This document shows, in pieces, positions 22,998 to 31,478 of a stretch of DNA of 32,519 bases. Source of the stretch: Ionaspis alba (taxonomy: Eukaryota); assembly GCA_964255285.1 (NCBI GenBank), contig CAXUUL010000103.1, positions 1 to 32,519 of the forward strand, written 5' to 3'. The first letter of the stretch is position 1, and the number at the start of each line of letters is the position of its first letter. The notes under the pieces are model-generated. The model was not told the origin of the DNA and ran no database searches. It was given only the letters and a program-made list of their open reading frames with translations. A program made the position numbers and the translations under genes.

Positions 22998-24915
22998 ATG
23001 GCAGACACTCCACCTTCTTCTTCGGCCGCCTCTCTGCCTCCACTTCCTCAAACAGCTGCAGCCCCAGGCCAACAGGACTATTCCGGCTCAAATACCAATG
23101 GACAGAGCAATCCAGCGCACATGCCACCACCACCATTACCTCCTGTGGTGATTCCTCAGAACAACAATCCCATTCCAACTGCCATGACATCTCCCTTTTC
23201 CAGTGGTGGGATGATGTCGCCAACGAGTTCCGGGGGATCAGTTCGGCGTGCCGCACCAGAGCCAAACAAGCGGGCATTGTATGTTGGAGGACTAGACCCA
23301 CGAGTGTCCGAGGATGTGTTGAGGCAGATCTTTGAGACAACTGGTCATGTCCAGAATGTCAAAATCATTCCTGATAAGAATGTAGGTGCTGTCAGTATCA
23401 ATTTTATCTTTTAACAGCCGATGTTTATCATCCGAGTGCTTGCGCCCAGCTTAACGTCTTTCTCGGGAAGCTCATTAGCAAGTTCGCGGAAAATGGTCTA
23501 GCACGCGTGAAACCGCGTAGACCGCACAATCCCATTTTTGACTTTGGATTTCTTCCTCCTTCCCAATTACCAGGCACTCCATCAACACCCCTGTTGCAGG
23601 CACCTTGAACTTTCTTTGGCTGACAACTTTTGCGTCACAGGTGAAAGGTTTTAATTACGGCTTCATTGAGTACGACGACCCCGGTGCAGCGGAACGAGCT
23701 ATGCAGACCCTCAATGGCCGCAGAGTCCATCAGTCGGTAAGTGCAATCGGAAATATTCAAGAATCAACATATATCTAATGATTTCCCGGTCTACAGGAGA
23801 TCCGTGTCAATTGGGCATATCAATCCAATACCGCCAACAAGGAAGATACCTCCAATCACTTCCACATCTTCGTCGGCGATCTCAGCAATGAGGTCAACGA
23901 TGAGGTTCTGCTCCAAGCCTTCTCTGCGTTTGGTTCGGTTTCGGAAGCTCGTGTGATGTGGGACATGAAGACTGGTCGCTCCCGTGGCTATGGATTCGTT
24001 GCGTTCCGCGAGCGAACTGACGCGGAGAAAGCACTTAGTTCGATGGACGGAGAATGGCTTGGATCTCGCGCTATTCGATGCAACTGGGCAAACCAGAAGG
24101 GCCAGCCTTCGATTTCTCAACAACAAGCCATGGCTTCGATGGGCATGACACCCACCACACCATTCAGCGGTCATCATCATTTCCCTACCAACGGCGTCCA
24201 GAGCTACGAAATGATCGTTCAGCAGACTCCTCAGTGGCAGACTACTTGCTATGTCGGAAATTTGACCCCATATACTACACAAAACGATCTCGTACCTCTA
24301 TTTCAGAACTTCGGATTCGTAGTCGAGACAAGATTTCAATCCGATCGTGGATTTGCCTTCATCAAGATGGACACCCATGAAAATGCTGCGATGGCGATCT
24401 GTCAGCTGTCTGGCTACAATGTTAACGGTCGGCCACTAAAATGCAGCGTAGGTTAAATCTTCGGTATATCACCCCATAGTCATGCTGATCCGCTTTGCCG
24501 CTTCTAGTGGGGTAAAGATCGTCCTCCTACCGGTCAATTCGACGGGTATTCGCCCCAAGCGCCCCAAACCCCAAATTTCGCTCAACCTTCGCCGGGCTAC
24601 GGATTCCCTCAGTATGGTGGAGCTGGTCCCATGAGCCCCCAAGGTGGCCCACATTCCACCGCCGCCATGTCAGGATATCAACCAAGTCATCAATCTCCAG
24701 GCTCGGGTCCAAGTCCCGGCCGTGCTTACAATCCTGGGCAAGGAGGGTTTCCATCGGCCGGCTTCCCTCCCCAGGGCTATGGTCAGATGCCAGGCAGCGC
24801 TAGCGGGTATGGTCACGATCAGAATTCGGCAGGAGGCTGGGGGGGTCAGCCAAGTGCGTCTGGGTTTCCTAGGAATCCGCCGAACGGAGGCAACAACACT
24901 TTCGGAGGGTACTAA
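22998..24915 (+). CDS. PUB1: Nuclear and cytoplasmic polyadenylated RNA-binding protein Pub1 (TIA-1/TIAR family; 3 RRMs + low-complexity tail), about 512-515 aa; exons 22998-23381 (or 23390), 23641-23736, 23797-24447, 24508-24915
   Basis: RRM1 ALYVGGL..KGFNYGFIEY, RRM2 HIFVGDLSNEVND..SRGYGFVAF, RRM3 CYVGNL..RGFAFIKM..LKCSWGKDR. All introns are GT-AG and keep the frame. Confidence 0.94.
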
Positions 24916-25581
24916 GCTACATCCAATACCGCACCACAGCCGGCCCGCCCACGACTATGATGCTCCATGTCTCAGTCCTCACCACGACGATGTGCAGATG
25001 ACTTCTACCACACCTGGTCTGCATCTGGGTGGATTTACCAACAGACCGTTCGTCGGACATCTCCTCCCTTGTTGTTGAAAAAGTTCTTTTGTCTTTCGGC
25101 GACCTGGATAATCTTTCTTATTGGGTCCCCTGTGCGACATCGTACAAAAGTATTGTGGAACCACATGTGTGAGTCGAGTACCTCTACATAGCGATTGTGT
25201 TGGCCACTCTGTTTTCCCTTCGCCTTCCTTTCACGAGTCACGAATTCCATAAAGGTTTATTGCTCACTCTGTTGGACTTGGTCGTCGCTCCACAATACCC
25301 AAAATGTACTTTCCTCGGTCTTTCGAGTGTCCATCAATTCAAGAAGATGGAATAGTCTAGATTGCATAGGTTTTCGCCTTAATCAAGTACGCATGCTCCT
25401 TGTATTGTGAGCCCCCAAACCTTACGGGAACGTGCGGCATATGCGATGTAATTTATCCATGGCTCCGGCTTTCATTCGTAATTGCAAAGCATGTATTCCA
25501 CCTTCTCCACCTCCTCATCTGTTCCCATCACCTTACAATAGAAATGCAAACTCGATGACCGTATAAACAATGCTGTGCATC

Positions 25582-25672
25582 CACGTGCACGTGCGAACTC
25601 CATGAAGTCGTACGCCAAGGCGCTAGATAAGAAAGTCGCGATGAGAACGCGAGGCAAACAAACTTTATATAT
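25582..25672 (+). promoter_or_regulatory. Putative PIF1 promoter elements: tandem E-boxes, MCB-like site, TATA-like box
   Basis: CACGTGCACGTG at 25582-25593, ACGCGA at 25647-25652 (MCB-like, typical of S-phase/DNA-metabolism genes), and TATATAT near 25666-25672. These motifs are short, so a chance match is possible. Confidence 0.3.
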
Positions 25673-25933
25673 TTCAGCTTGTAACAGATGCATCGCTTCC
25701 GATCAACTCAATTGAAACTGCTCCGAGTCTCACTCCGGTAGCCCCAGGCGACTGCAAAGACGAATCCTCTTCGGGACATCAGGGTGGCAAGCTGCTCTAG
25801 GCTTGCAGCATTCTCAACATGCTTAGCACTCCGGCGGCGAATTAGGCTCTCATTACTCCTCGGTCAACAACCGAAATCAGCCACTCTTCTACGCAAATTT
25901 GGCTCATCTTGTACTCTTCAGACGACAGACACG

Positions 25934-28583
25934 ATGTTTCATCAAGCTGTGCAGCAGCATGATGCTGTAACGCCCCGAAAGACATTGGCGCAGCAACTTT
26001 TCCCCTCCAGCAGTCCTGGTGCCACGCACGGTAACATAGCTGGCAATGCTCGGGCCACACTGCAATCACAGAATACACTGCAGCCAAGTCCATCGTCGGC
26101 CATTAATATAAAATTAGGTTCTGTTATACCTATGAAGCGGACGGCGTCTCAATCACACAAATTCGAGCCAGTTTTGAGCAACCCAGCTTCGGTGCCGCGA
26201 ACGTCCACTATACAGGGCCATTCTAAAGTGCGGTTGGGTACCGGCGGTGGTATAGTTGGGAGACTACATGATGGGGTGTACTTCGACGAAAACGACTTTG
26301 TGAACGATGCCGAGCTAGACCTCGATGAAGACTCTGGTTTCGATCGTCAAATCTCTACTTCAAAGGCACCGGTACCACAGCCACCGGTACAGGATTCGCT
26401 GTCGCCTGTGGGCACCGTACCATCAAGCAACGTACCATTGGACTGGTCGTCTTCGCCACCGACTCACGAAAATCGACTCGACACGGACCGTTCTGAACCT
26501 CGGACCAAGAAGCAACTCGAAACGGCAGACAACGACCGCGGAGAAGCCAGCCCGAAATTAAAGATCGGTAGTGCTGCTCCACGCTCTCGAAAGCGTGGAA
26601 CATTACCATGGCTGAAAAACCAACAAGTCCAGGAGTCGATGAAAGGACCGCCAGCTCAGATACCACAAGCCTTTGACCGTAGCAGGAGAGGTCAGAGGAA
26701 AAGGTCGTCAACATCTACCGATTCATTCACACCTTTGCCAAAGGACAACGAAGACTCTCATTACCTCTGGAATAAGAGCGCCAGTGCATTGAAGGATGAG
26801 CAGAAGAAGAAGAAGCGTCAGCAAGCCCTTAATGGGGGGAACAGCATCAGCGTGGGCGAAGGCAACAGCGAAATGATCACAGCGTCGAAAAGGGTTCCAA
26901 GACGCAAGCCTGTAGCTAAGGTGTTTCTCAGCCAGGAGCAGCGAAAGGTGCTTGATCTTGTTGCAGAGGGGAAAAAGAGCGTCTTTTTTACTGGGTCTGC
27001 AGGGACGGGCAAGTCCGTTCTACTGCGAGAAATTATCAACGTCCTGAGACAAAAGCACAATAAGGAGCTCGACCGCGTTGCAGTCACAGCTTCAACCGGT
27101 CTGGCTGCATGTAACGTGGGCGGCATTACCTTACATAGCTTCGGTGGAATAGGCTTGGGAAAGGAATCAGTCCCGGAGCTGGTGAAGAAAATCAAGAGAA
27201 ACCAGAAGGCAAGGAACCGGTGGATTAGAACCAAGGTTTTGGTCATTGATGAGATATCCATGGTTGATGGCGACCTTTTCGACAAACTTGAAGGGATCGC
27301 TCGCATCATTAGGAACAACGGTAGACCCTTCGGAGGAATCCAGCTTGTGATCACTGGAGACTTCTTCCAATTACCCCCTGTGCCAGATTATGGCAAGGTC
27401 GCGAAATTTGCTTTCGACGCTGCCACATGGACCACTTCTATCGATCACACCATTGGCTTGACACAGGTTTTCCGCCAAAAAGATCCTGGTGAGCACGTAA
27501 CCTCCTTCAAGTGATGGCGGAAGTATTGACACGGACAGTTTTTGCCAATATGTTGAACGAGATGCGTCTCGGAAACTTATCACAGAAATCAATAGCCGCA
27601 TTCCACACTCTCAATCGTCCGTTGAATATCAACGACAACCTCGAAGCTACAGAGCTGTAAGTTGCGCATATGGCGATATTTCCTGATCAGAGTTGTCGTG
27701 CTGAAACTAGACCAGCTTCCCAACACGGACTGAAGTGGACAATGCCAATAACATTCGGATGAAAAACCTGAAAGGCCTGGCAATGGATTTCACCGCAACT
27801 GATGGTGGACTCATAACCGACACAGCACAACGTGACAAGCTGCTCTCCAACTGTATGGCGCCGCAGAAAATCACCCTGAAAGAAGGTGCTCAGGTTATGC
27901 TCATCAAGAACATGGATGAATCATTGGTCAATGGCTCCATTGGCAAGGTTGTACGATTCACGACTGCGAAAGCTTACGCAGACTACGTAGAGAACGAGGA
28001 CGACATCGAAGAAGCCGAAATGCTGGGCCTGAGTCATGAAGCTATGGAGAAGTCCAGGTCGAAGATCAAGTCCTTCATGGGTCAAGAACCCACTGGCAGC
28101 ACAAGTCCAAAATGGCCAATGGTAAAGTTCCTGGTTGCGGACGGTACGACACGGCAGATGTTATTACAGCCTGAATTATGGAAGATTGAGCTTCCTAATG
28201 GCGAGATTCAGGCTTCTCGCCTCCAAGTGCCGTTAATACTTTCGTGGGCTCTCTCGATCCACAAGGCCCAGGGACAAACGCTGGAAAGAGTGAAGGTAGA
28301 CTTGGGGAAGATTTTCGAGAAAGGCCAAGCCTACGTGGCTTTGAGCCGAGCCACATCCCAGGAAGGTTTACAGATCAGCAGATTTGACCCGAAAAAAGTA
28401 ATGGTTCATGAAAAGGTTCGCAACTTCTACAACAGCTTGTACAACATTGAACAAGCAGCCAAGCGATCGGATCACGCGTCTGAATCTGGAAGGAAGAAGG
28501 CAATGGACTATGATGAAGATCATCCGAGAGGAGGAATGGTGTTCGAGGAGGACGAAGAGGCTATGAGGGAGTTATTGGCTTGA
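25934..28583 (+). CDS. PIF1: ATP-dependent 5'-3' DNA helicase Pif1, about 846 aa from the first directly usable in-frame ATG; exons 25934-27488, 27539-27656, 27716-28583
   Basis: Helicase motifs FFTGSAGTGKS, VAVTASTGLAA, VIDEISM, PFGGIQLVITGDFFQLPPV, QVFRQKD, ELFPTR, QVPLILSWALSIHKAQGQTL and GQAYVALSRA. Introns 27489-27538 and 27657-27715 restore DPVFANMLNEMRLG and ELFPTR. Confidence 0.95.
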
Positions 28584-28923
28584 TTTGCATGTTCTGGAGG
28601 TGCATCAGTGCTTGGAGTTTCGTCGTGGTTGTGTTGTGCCCTGCATTCCATATGCCGACCTTCCCAGGCTTCCCGACACTTCTAGATATACGCTGTTAGT
28701 TAGAAAGCCCACAAGACGTTCAAGCAGCAGCCTGCATGGGTATGACCAAATTGAGAACATCGATCGAGGCAAACGTGGTCCTTCCTCGGCTGGATCCGTC
28801 ATCCTCGCATGGTAGTAAATATTATCGATTTTGACTCGATAATACTCAGTTCTGACTGTAAGATTGATCTCCTTGCCGCCATGAATTGTTCCTTCTATGC
28901 AGGACAGCGCACGCTCTAGCATG

Positions 28924-31478
28924 ATGGCTTCAGAATTTATTGGGTCTACTGTGCTAGTCACGCTCCGTTCACCTCCCGATGGGCAAGTCCGCGGGGTTGT
29001 TACGGCCATTGCTGGTCAACATCTGACACTCCACGAAGGTATTTCCTCTAGGACTCTAAGCTGTACCGGACGAGCATAACAATCCTCACTCTAGTCGTCT
29101 GGCTCACCTCGGGACGCCGCAGTTCCTCTTTCCACATTGACGCAAAAAACATCCTTGACCTCGAGGTGACCCCAGAGGTCAAGGCTCACAACTCTTCAAA
29201 AACGATTCTCGACCATCAGCACAATAGCCAGACAGACAGACATAATGACCAGCGACTACCTACCCACTCCCATTCATCGCCGGTACAGACGGGGTCTTCT
29301 CCTGCTCCCTCAACGCAAATGCATGATAGCGCCCTTATCGATCCAGCTATCATCAGCTTTGCGAAGCCACCAGGGAACTCCACCGCATCACTCCCAATTC
29401 GGTCACCAAAAGTGCATCGCCCTCCTATACCTCGACAGATGCTCGATGAAGCCGTAAAAGGAAGTCCTGCGCGAGCCACCCCTACGATTCCCACAGAGCC
29501 TGTGGTACCTACGACTACAAAGCCCCGCCCCGCTAAAGGAGCCTCTTCCAGAGTAGGCGGACATGACTTGCTAGCAACTGCTACTTTGTCTAGGCCGTTT
29601 GATGATCTTTCTGTGAACGCCGCTGGCAGTATCGATGAGGCTTTTGACCCTCAAACGGCAGAGTTGGGTACGCACGGAGGCAAAGGAGAGCAGGTTCAAT
29701 TAGACGCAGGTCCAACTGATGCTGGTAATTCTAGTAAACCCGTCACTAAAAGAACAAGGAGGGGCACGAAAGGCAAAGGCACGAGGAATGGATTCGCACA
29801 AGCACCTCCTGTGGCCTTGCAACAAATGGAAGATCTTGAATCATCTCCCCTCGCTGTGAGGCGCGAGAGAAGAGTGGCTCAGTCTAAAACGGCTACAAAG
29901 GCTGATATGCGCGGAGACGAGTTGTCTCCCGCTCGGAAGCATTTGCGGCCTGGAAGTCAGTCTAAGAAACATTTAGATCAGCGCACGCACACTGGGCGAC
30001 GACGGGTCGGGGAGGCTCTTAATGGCTGGGCCACGGAGGATGCTACAGACATCCAGGAAATGGGTGACTTTGACTTTGTTGGCAATCTGTCTAAATTTGA
30101 CAAGGGAGAGGTGTTCAGACAACTTCGAAGAGACGACACTACGGCAGACGAAGCACGACTTGTCAGTCATAATCGCCTACCGCCCAGAGCTGGGACTGCA
30201 GGCGGAAAGAACCTACACTGGACTGAAAATGTTCTCGATTCGCCCAAGACGAATGGACATACAAGGTGGACTAGTGAGGCAGATGAAAGTGAAGAAGGAG
30301 TCGGTGAGACAAGATTAAGCAGCGGACAAAGTTCAAGAAGGAACACCTCTCGGACTGCTGTTCGGAAACCTCCTTCTCGGAAAGGAAGCACCAAAGGAGG
30401 AGACAGTCAATCGTTCACAACCACAAAACTCCTGACGGCCTCCGTTGGGAGTGTGCGGTACTCTTCTCTCGATCAGACGGGCAGCCCGAGACCCAGGCGT
30501 AACTTGTCGAACTCGCCATTCACTGGAGCTTTGAACCCTTCCCGACCGTCGTTAAGAGTGATTGGATCTAACAAATTATGTCCATGTCTCAGCCCATTGC
30601 AGATGCTAGAATTCGAGCAGTTCGCTGTCACCGAGCTTGGTCTGACGGAAGACATAATGACCGAAAACGCTGGCAGAGGGATTGCCGAAGTCTCCTTGAG
30701 CGCTGTCCAAGGACTAGAAAAAGACTTTGGCCCACAAGCTAGTTTGCCAAATCCAACCATCCTCATAGTCGCCGGGAATCACAAAACTGGAGCACGATCA
30801 CTTGCAGCTGCTCGCCATCTGAGGAATCACGGTTTTCGGATATTTGCCACTGTTATGGGTCTAGAAAGGGAGGAGGATCTGCTAGACGTCGTTAAGCAGC
30901 AAGCGAACGCATACCGTAAGGCTGCCGGGAGCTTGCTCAAGCCGAATGAGCTTCTCGAGCGACTGAAAAATATGCAGCAACACCCGACTCTCCTGGTTGA
31001 TGCTCTACTTGCTACACATACATGTTTTGAAGATCTGCGACGAGAAGATCAAGCGTTTTACTTTCAACTTGTCCTCTGGGCAAATCGTACTGAGATTCAG
31101 ATTGTCTCTATTGATGTGCCTTCGGGTCTTGATGCTTCCACTGGTATGAAATCTCCGTGCTCTATGATCTATGACTATACCCTTCTGTCTCCTGGATTTC
31201 ATTGAATCCCACGCTGATCCTTTACAGGCGAGCTTACTACTATTGATGGTGAACCGCTCGCCTTCTTTCCCAAGTCCATACTCTCTCTAGGTGCACCAAA
31301 GCCGTTCCTCATGACCATGCTCAAGGAAGTGGGTGCCAAGGACACCACCCAACTCTACCTTGCCGATATCGGGATTAGCAATATTGCTTGGAAGCGGCTC
31401 GGTAACAGGCGCAGTCGTGGAATTGACTTTGGGGGCAGTTGGATCTTGAAATTAAGATATCAAGGCGGCGTTGAATGA
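28924..31478 (+). CDS. EDC3: Enhancer of mRNA decapping Edc3 (Lsm, DFDF/FDF and YjeF_N domains), about 804 aa; exons 28924-29038, 29095-31143, 31228-31478
   Basis: Lsm N-terminus MASEFIGSTVLVTL..GQVRGVV. GWATEDATDIQEMGDFDFVGNLSKFDK..RLVSHN (DFDF/FDF). YjeF_N motifs MTENAGRGIA, VAGNHKTGA, SIDVPSG, LGAPK, LADIGI. Alternative start ATG at 28921. Confidence 0.92.

Follow-up and report, generated by a model that had tools for sequence, protein, structure and literature searches.

A probable non-AUG start for the presumed mitochondrial presequence of PIF1 in Ionaspis alba

The window analysed here is the whole stretch of 32,519 nucleotides (nt) from Ionaspis alba (assembly GCA_964255285.1, contig CAXUUL010000103.1, forward strand), and it harbours the gene of PIF1, a helicase of the PIF1 family (SF1B). 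Upstream of the start codon at 25934, here called M2, the PIF1 frame stays open, and this extension is very probably the real mitochondrial presequence of a PIF1 that is made as two isoforms. No in-frame ATG leads into it. The comparative data point to non-AUG initiation as the probable origin of the mitochondrial isoform, and a GTG at 25784 is the foremost candidate, the chance that this very codon is the start being a little under even. PIF1 genes of the relatives have a family-wide design with two starts, and throughout one clade a CTG in strong context has taken over from the first AUG. The features on which this rests are the following.

25742..25933, + strand: open 64-codon extension in the PIF1 frame, basic and acid-poor, presumed matrix-targeting presequence.
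25760..25762, + strand: ACG, an in-frame near-cognate codon and alternative start candidate, with A at -3 and A at +4; as +4 is not G, it falls outside the strong-context set.
25784..25786, + strand: GTG, proposed start of the mitochondrial isoform, with A at -3 (25781) and G at +4 (25787), 50 codons before M2.
25802..25804, + strand: CTT, not a near-cognate codon, alternative homolog of the relatives' CTG start according to MAFFT alignment of DNA, MAFFT alignment of peptides and a profile of 11 relatives.
25819..25845, + strand: out-of-frame AUG that opens an 8-codon upstream open reading frame (uORF), context caacATGc with A at -3; its TAG is at 25843-25845 and its end 88 nt before M2.
25892..25909, + strand: Arg-Lys-Phe-Gly-Ser-Ser, 14 codons before M2, resembling an R-3 processing-peptidase motif.
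25934..27488, + strand: second start M2 (A at -3) and PIF1 exon 1, conserved in relatives and matched by the PIF1 domain of Pfam.

The identity of the gene is given by Pfam, with PF05970 (PIF1) in exon 1 at 3.6e-46 and PF21530 (Pif1 2B domain) in exon 3 at 1.3e-11. Counted from M2, the PIF1 of the window has 846 amino acids, and its closest relatives in a protein search (P0002-4) are 61% identical to it. Direct reading bears out the anatomy that a sequence-only reading of the window had described. From 25742 up to the ATG at 25934 the PIF1 frame runs open for 64 codons, rich in Arg, poor in acidic residues and without any in-frame ATG. The 8-codon uORF is present at the out-of-frame ATG 25819 (caacATG), which is the sole ATG within 25691-25933. 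A further ATG at 25688 is in frame and is cut off by the TAG at 25739-25741, which is followed by C, and both the ACG at 25760 and the GTG at 25784 are in frame. The first AUG of a two-start PIF1 is thus lacking in the window, with no in-frame ATG found from TAG 25739 to M2.

That reading had also allowed for a one-base assembly error, with 25819-25827 as the place to look for an indel; such an error could throw ATG 25819 out of frame or create TAG 25739. The check was made on assembled contigs of two sequencing runs, X1 and X2. In the Logan assembly of run X1, which is possibly the source of the window, all 3,401 nt of the region 25300-28700 were recovered without a difference or a gap, at a depth of 118 and with a share of words of 1.00. 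Run X2, from another sample of the same study, gave a 133-nt contig equal to 25697-25829 with 0 differences at a depth of 5.4, which spans the TAG, the GTG and the ATG-CTT-AGC. Since two independent contig assemblies agree with the window exactly and show no indels, a one-base assembly error is very unlikely. Longer contigs of runs X2 and X3 (11,700 and 9,312 nt) align to the helicase core at 27221-27474 with 33-35 differences per ~170 nt, and represent the PIF1 of different fungi sampled in that study.

The make-up of the extension fits a presequence. Its peptide contains 11 Arg/Lys and 2 Asp/Glu, with 0 acidic residues among the first 40 counted from the GTG. When the 192-nt extension was shuffled 20,000 times by mononucleotide, 7.7% of the shuffles were open and 1.2% were both open and as basic and acid-poor. 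Together with an open extension in 52 out of 52 aligned rows, described below, this composition agrees with the view that the extension is a mitochondrial presequence without a reachable AUG. In the tails of 14 relatives the best-kept columns are Arg at -14 (8/14) and Phe at -12 (10/14), and the window possesses both. The same Arg-x-Phe motif stands exactly at -14 in L001/2, L004/5, L013 and L023. By our own arithmetic, the coincidence of Arg -14 and Phe -12 would be about 0.4% at the composition of the window, a figure that applies to columns picked after viewing the relatives. The motif at 25892..25909 resembles an R-3 processing site, as we take that motif to be defined, and the presequence may be cleaved there. 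An Arg-x-Phe/Tyr motif common to the whole family was considered as well and rejected, the strict pattern being found in 15/52 rows versus 4/104 other-frame controls and 83/1,040 shuffles.

The two-start design is found across the relatives of PIF1. The protein search returned 120 first exons called from open reading frames (ORFs; P rows), the best of them 61% identical. Placed on a 34-sequence profile, 76 out of the 120 begin at M2, 12 have an upstream extension, and 32 begin farther downstream. M2 is a conserved Met followed by Phe/Leu-x-Lys-Ala-Val-Gln, and corresponds to 25934 in the window. A scan of metagenome contigs with the same alignment gave 78 loci with DNA (L rows), and M2 was located in 51 distinct loci, which with the window make 52 rows. 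In all of these 52 rows the frame upstream of M2 is open, for 32-143 codons. An in-frame upstream ATG is present in 41 out of the 52, mostly 39-57 codons before M2. When the protein search was restricted to residues 1-140 of the extended ORF, it returned the protein of the window and two relatives already known, without any further extension.

The two starts differ in context. The first ATG stands in a weak and conserved context, TGY-ATG-C: among 36 distinct sites, 33 have U at -3 and 27 have C at +4. The conserved U at -3 accounts for the apparent Cys codon ahead of the first Met. At M2, 45 out of 48 loci carry a purine at -3, and in the window this purine is A. Between the two starts, out-of-frame ATGs occur about half as often as shuffles predict (23 observed, 44 expected), and 28 out of 48 loci contain none. 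This pattern of a weak first and a strong second start corresponds, as read from the sequences, to the known leaky-scanning design of Pif1. Many ATG-type relatives (L015, L016, L018, L020, L021, L023, L031, L033, L073, L077 and P0057) possess in addition an extra in-frame ATG ~20-30 codons upstream of the first AUG. In these relatives it is followed by ~20 hydrophobic residues like a membrane span, which reach up to the first AUG and are absent from the window, and this extra ATG could give rise to a third, longer isoform.

Eleven locus rows lack an upstream in-frame ATG, and they group with the window. In a FastTree phylogeny of 75 first-exon proteins, a clade of 32 rows (support 99) consists of the window, the 11 AUG-less locus rows and 20 added database proteins, and all 41 ATG-type rows fall outside it. 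The members of the P0074 cluster carry the NCBI names Xanthoria parietina and X. calcicola (Lecanoromycetes), and therefore the clade probably represents Lecanoromycetes, that is, lichen-forming fungi.

The 11 AUG-less rows belong to five lineages (L001-3, L004-8, L013, L019 and L024). Each lineage possesses an in-frame ANN-CTG-GCN 43-53 codons before M2, with A at -3 and G at +4 of the CTG, in the versions ATT-CTG-GCT, ACA-CTG-GCT, ATA-CTG-GCT, ACT-CTG-GCT and ACA-CTG-GCG. An in-frame stop lies 2, 2, 4 and 5 codons upstream of the CTG in L001, L004, L019 and L024, respectively, which leaves almost no other place for a start. CTG makes up 12-18% of the Leu codons in the AUG-less ORFs, yet it is the codon at the start site in 5 out of 5 lineages. 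In ATG-type loci the Leu codon that follows the ATG varies, being CTG in 7, CTC in 4 and CTT in 3. Between near-identical copies, indels were found solely upstream of the CTG, the nearest at 74 nt in the L004 group and at 80 nt in the L001 group.

Relatives with and without the ATG can be compared codon by codon. P0151, a full-length model of 864 residues placed near L001-3, begins with Met exactly where L001-3 have ATT, and continues with the same Leu-Ala-Gly-His. L061 retains ATG-CTG-GCT. P0027, a database protein with its start at M2, shares 99.2% identity with the AUG-less ORF of L001, and, at least for this protein, a database start at M2 would mean that there is no upstream ATG. Similarly, the deposited Xanthoria parietina model P0123 (CAL8574044.1, 822 residues) begins at the position of M2 and without the presequence, which fits annotation pipelines missing AUG-less leaders in this group. 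The extensions of L004 and P0050 are identical at 25 out of 48 positions by our own count, and they share a Leu-Ala-Val motif with synonymous codon differences. Conservation of the extension as protein is thus clear among these relatives, judged from their codons and residues.

The simplest reading of these sites is that the ancestral start was ATG-CTG-G, that the ATG was lost, probably repeatedly, and that the adjacent CUG now starts the presequence. On the same simplest reading, the A at -3 of the CTG would be the A of the lost ATG. An out-of-frame ATG 23 nt before M2 recurs in four of the AUG-less lineages (L001, L002, L013, L019 and L024). It is formed by His/Asn and Ala/Val codons, and is either a selected upstream AUG or a by-product of the peptide.

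In the window, GTG 25784 corresponds to the relatives' CTG in position (-50, against -43 to -53) and in context. No other CTG, GTG or ACG in the 64 codons combines a purine at -3 with G at +4. Away from the start, ATG-type extensions contain ~6 A-3/G+4 codons of this kind per roughly 3,400 codons according to our own tally, and a chance hit would therefore be expected at ~2% in a 13-codon span and at ~11% in the whole extension. The tblastn alignment of L004 extends into the extension and pairs the Val of GTG 25784 with the start Leu of L004. P0003, the nearest relative with an extension, and P0015 both have Val-Ala-Ser at the aligned start, the same as the window. The earlier reading had named non-AUG initiation, with GTG 25784 among its candidates, as one of several fallbacks, and it is this one that fits the comparative data best.

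Several results speak against initiation at this GTG. Three alignments, namely MAFFT of DNA, MAFFT of peptides and the 11-relative profile, pair the Leu of the relatives' CTG with CTT 25802, although with low posterior support. This register lies six codons downstream of the GTG, and CTT cannot initiate. Against a profile of the extension alone, built from the 11 relatives, the window scores 4.1 bits, and 85 out of 1,000 shuffles score as high. In a 20-residue matrix anchored at M2, 3,281 out of 20,000 shuffles score as high, a test of little power given that P0003 and L061, which are true members, do even worse in it. Trained on the long ORFs of the window, codon-usage log-odds are -0.11 for the extension in frame, compared with 0.19 for exon 1 and -0.25 for intergenic sequence. 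No hairpin beyond those of shuffles was found after the GTG or after the CTG of the relatives (z -1.07 to 0.58). Moreover, the out-of-frame AUG 25819 has a good context and would intercept ribosomes bound for M2, which is awkward for simple leaky scanning. A profile built from the sister subclade only gives the window 3.4 bits, with 75 out of 1,000 shuffles as high, and codon-usage scoring shows no frame preference within the extension.

In the light of the two registers, GTG 25784 may be the direct homolog of the relatives' CTG, or a replacement start if the CTT register is right. The segment 25781-25816 consists of two adjacent 18-nt stretches which both begin with AGG-NTN-GCA and match at 11 out of 18 positions by our own count. 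It could be an old tandem duplication of six codons, which would explain why alignments fall on both GTG 25784 and CTT 25802.

The CTT is also the basis of the main rival explanation. The window has CTT where three alignments expect CTG, and for this reason the leader may be a relic, in which the CTG became CTT 25802, the former leader is now a 5' untranslated region with a uORF, and any mitochondrial PIF1 is made in another way. The codon-usage score that does not resemble coding sequence, the similarity to relatives that does not reach significance, and the out-of-frame AUG inside the extension all agree with such a relic. Nonetheless, the 64 codons are still open and presequence-like, to a degree equalled by 1.2% of shuffles, Arg -14 and Phe -12 are kept, and a strong-context GTG stands at the expected distance. 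The extension is also open in all 52 rows, including the five AUG-less lineages. We regard a relic leader as unlikely, and still as the explanation that competes most directly with non-AUG initiation.

If non-AUG initiation operates in the window, scanning ribosomes would now and then initiate, within the PIF1 frame, at a near-cognate codon, and the likeliest one is GUG 25784, whose flanks (A at -3, G at +4) are the best possible. These ribosomes would translate a presequence of ~50 residues, basic and nearly free of acidic residues, and continue through M2, giving the mitochondrial isoform. Most ribosomes would bypass this weak start and begin at M2 (25934), giving the nuclear isoform. Another route to M2 would be translation of the 8-codon uORF at 25819 followed by reinitiation. 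The use of the GTG, the import and cleavage of the extension and the role of the uORF are what we infer from the sequences.

The sequence-only reading had given first place to recoding at the out-of-frame AUG, with a programmed +1 frameshift in which a ribosome starts at AUG 25819 and slips at CUU-A in codon 2 into the PIF1 frame. Yeast +1 frameshift sites are CUU-AGG-C in Ty1 and ABP140 and CUU-AGU-U in EST3. The window resembles them in a CUU followed by a codon that begins with A, and in a downstream frame that is open in +1. Unlike these sites, its A-site codon is AGC, the site lies at codon 2 of a uORF, and it is not conserved in relatives. The heptamer CUU-AGC-A is neither of the two yeast forms. 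To our knowledge AGC is not known as a slow codon, and we know of no slippery tRNA-Leu of the budding-yeast type in this group. AUG 25819 does have A at -3, its distance upstream of M2, 38.3 codons, comes close to the lower limit of the range of first AUGs (39-57), and many relatives also have Leu as second and Ala as third residue.

However, none of the five AUG-less lineages (L001, L004, L013, L019 and L024) has an out-of-frame ATG in the equivalent position. ATG 25819 is flanked differently from the ancestral start with its conserved TGY-ATG-C, and where the (weak) alignments pair it with anything, it falls 6-12 codons downstream of the start of the relatives. Rfam gave no match at E up to 1 for 25300-26200, and no notable structure was detected for a frameshift. 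Recoding by a +1 shift at ATG-CTT-A consequently lacks support from the relatives, the heptamer and the context, and we consider it very improbable. If it were true, the shift site would be a new one, serving organelle targeting in a fungus that is filamentous or lichen-forming.

Other explanations look upstream of the TAG, where three further features are found.

25647..25660, + strand: conserved DNA word of the ACGCGAGGCAAA type with an ACGCG core like that of the MluI box, aligned in the window, L004, L013, L019, L024 and L061.
25664..25674, + strand: TATA-like run tttatatattt, read by eye.
25688..25741, + strand: in-frame upstream ATG with 17 codons that end at TAG 25739-25741, in poor context with C at -3 and C at +4.

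The ACGCGAGGCAAA-type word lies ~210-310 nt before M2 in L004, L013, L019, L024 and L061. A CGCGAGG word is present at most 700 nt upstream of M2 in 12 out of 51 rows, and nearly all rows possess one to three ACGCG/CGCGT cores at -200 to -390 nt from M2. The word at 25647..25660 falls in different reading frames across loci, so that its conservation is at the level of DNA, and it is probably a promoter element. The ACGCG/CGCGT cores are like MluI cell-cycle boxes, which suggests that PIF1 is under promoter control of the G1/S type throughout Pezizomycotina. In P0050 and P0059 the far-upstream ATGs, at or before the word, are probably spurious extensions of ORFs. If the run at 25664..25674 is a TATA box, transcription may start near or after ATG 25688. 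No conservation of the ORF of ATG 25688 was found in relatives, and 25688..25741 would be either an upstream ORF or a segment outside the mRNA.

Translation could also begin at AUG 25688 and pass TAG 25739 by readthrough or by A-to-I editing (UAG to UGG), as the earlier reading had suggested among its alternatives. This ATG shares the PIF1 frame, the 17-residue peptide that it opens is basic and amphipathic (maximum hydrophobic moment 0.49), and C follows the stop. Nevertheless, the context of AUG 25688 is poor, and no relative possesses a conserved upstream ORF with a single stop. The stops of L001, L004, L019 and L024 immediately precede the CTG, and no usable AUG lies upstream. ATG 25688 itself lies 28 nt past the conserved DNA word and ~14 nt past the TATA-like run, and may be untranscribed. 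With no counterpart in the relatives, readthrough or editing of the UAG is extremely improbable.

A small 5' intron that removes the stop and joins an upstream AUG (25688, 25602 or another) in frame would give two ordinary AUG isoforms. There are 100 stop-free in-frame GT..AG models, including the 63-nt intron 25738-25800 proposed in the earlier reading, and models from ATG 25602 with the donor GTACGC. None of the 100 has all five signals, and in the 25 best no YTRAY branch site lies at 8-45 nt from the acceptor. The intron 25738-25800 shows 3 out of 5 signals, its donor GTAGCC having C and not G at +5 and no YTRAY being present, and models from ATG 25602 would enclose the conserved upstream DNA word. 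Among the relatives, P0151 has its Met at the CTG-adjacent site and no upstream exon, and in L001-3 the stretch from the stop to the CTG contains no AG. An intron is therefore improbable as the source of the leader.

Downstream of exon 1, the gene is completed by two introns and two exons.

27489..27538, + strand: intron 1, GTGAGC ... ACAG; the junction gives DPVFANMLNEM, as in the full-length relative P0151.
27539..27656, + strand: PIF1 exon 2, from reading and from relatives.
27657..27715, + strand: intron 2, GTAAGT ... CCAG; the junction gives ATELFPTR of P0123 and P0151.
27716..28583, + strand: PIF1 exon 3 including the stop codon, with the Pif1 2B domain.

The downstream neighbour at 29052-31205 (+) possesses FDF and YjeF_N domains, and is presumably of the Edc3 decapping-enhancer type. 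The upstream ORF at 24508-24915 (+) is rich in Gln, Gly and Pro and has no Pfam match.

Dual targeting of one protein from two starts is described for the same gene in yeasts. Saccharomyces cerevisiae PIF1 (AUG1/AUG40) and Schizosaccharomyces pombe pfh1 have two in-frame AUGs that flank the mitochondrial targeting signal, and are decoded by leaky scanning (PMC11229318). The PIF1 of the window belongs to the same family, and would be similar in having a weak first start for the mitochondrial form, a strong second AUG for the nuclear form and the targeting signal between them (PMC11229318). It differs in that the first start in the window and its clade is not AUG, while for yeast non-AUG starts are proposed only as a minor back-up (PMC11229318).

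Near-cognate starts of this kind are known from other fungal proteins. According to PMC7049704, fungal 'DualNCC' proteins use an upstream near-cognate start, such as ArgRS (AUU) and LeuRS (ACG/AUU) of Cryptococcus, AlaRS switches between AUG and near-cognate starts among species, and the pattern of a weak start followed by a strong one is described for fungal dual-targeted proteins. Similar to these, in the window and its clade a near-cognate codon in strong context would begin a mitochondrial extension ahead of the main AUG, and the use of AUG or of a near-cognate start would change from lineage to lineage (PMC7049704). At GTG 25784 the window shows a sequence feature of the DualNCC group: its in-frame extension is open, has no AUG and contains a near-cognate codon flanked by a purine at -3 and by G at +4. 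The protein is a DNA helicase, and thus differs from these proteins in family. Yeast ALA1 and GRS1 are further examples of an upstream near-cognate start. The kind of event proposed for PIF1 is thus a known one, dual targeting from an upstream near-cognate start with AUG and near-cognate turnover across fungi (PMC7049704).

Within Pezizomycotina, PMC5487733 reports conserved N-terminal extensions initiated at near-cognate codons in Neurospora crassa cpc-1 and its homologs, with A at -3 and G at +4. The PIF1 leader is similar in belonging to Pezizomycotina, in its AUG-less extension, in codons such as CUG, AUU or ACG in optimal context and in the uORFs of the leader (PMC5487733). In contrast, the cpc-1 extension is not a targeting signal, and cpc-1 was tested in vitro and by ribosome profiling (PMC5487733). 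Among publications that pair Pif1 with non-AUG or near-cognate starts, none on Pif1 of filamentous or lichen fungi was found at the level of titles and abstracts.

ORF callers and at least one deposited model, that of Xanthoria parietina, open the protein with the second AUG and thereby leave out the targeting signal, and localisation predictions for such genomes would wrongly assign PIF1 to the nucleus alone. A presequence without an AUG, even one with a tempting out-of-frame AUG, is not by itself evidence for recoding. The DNA of nucleus and mitochondrion alike is maintained by PIF1, and the choice of start codon sets the ratio of its isoforms. If non-AUG initiation holds, a whole clade of probably lichen-forming fungi swapped an AUG in weak context for a CUG or GUG in strong context. 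The differing codons at the old AUG position (ATT, ATA, ACA and ACT) suggest that this replacement took place more than once. The PIF1 genes of this clade would then be a clear natural example of start-codon turnover that keeps the start weak.

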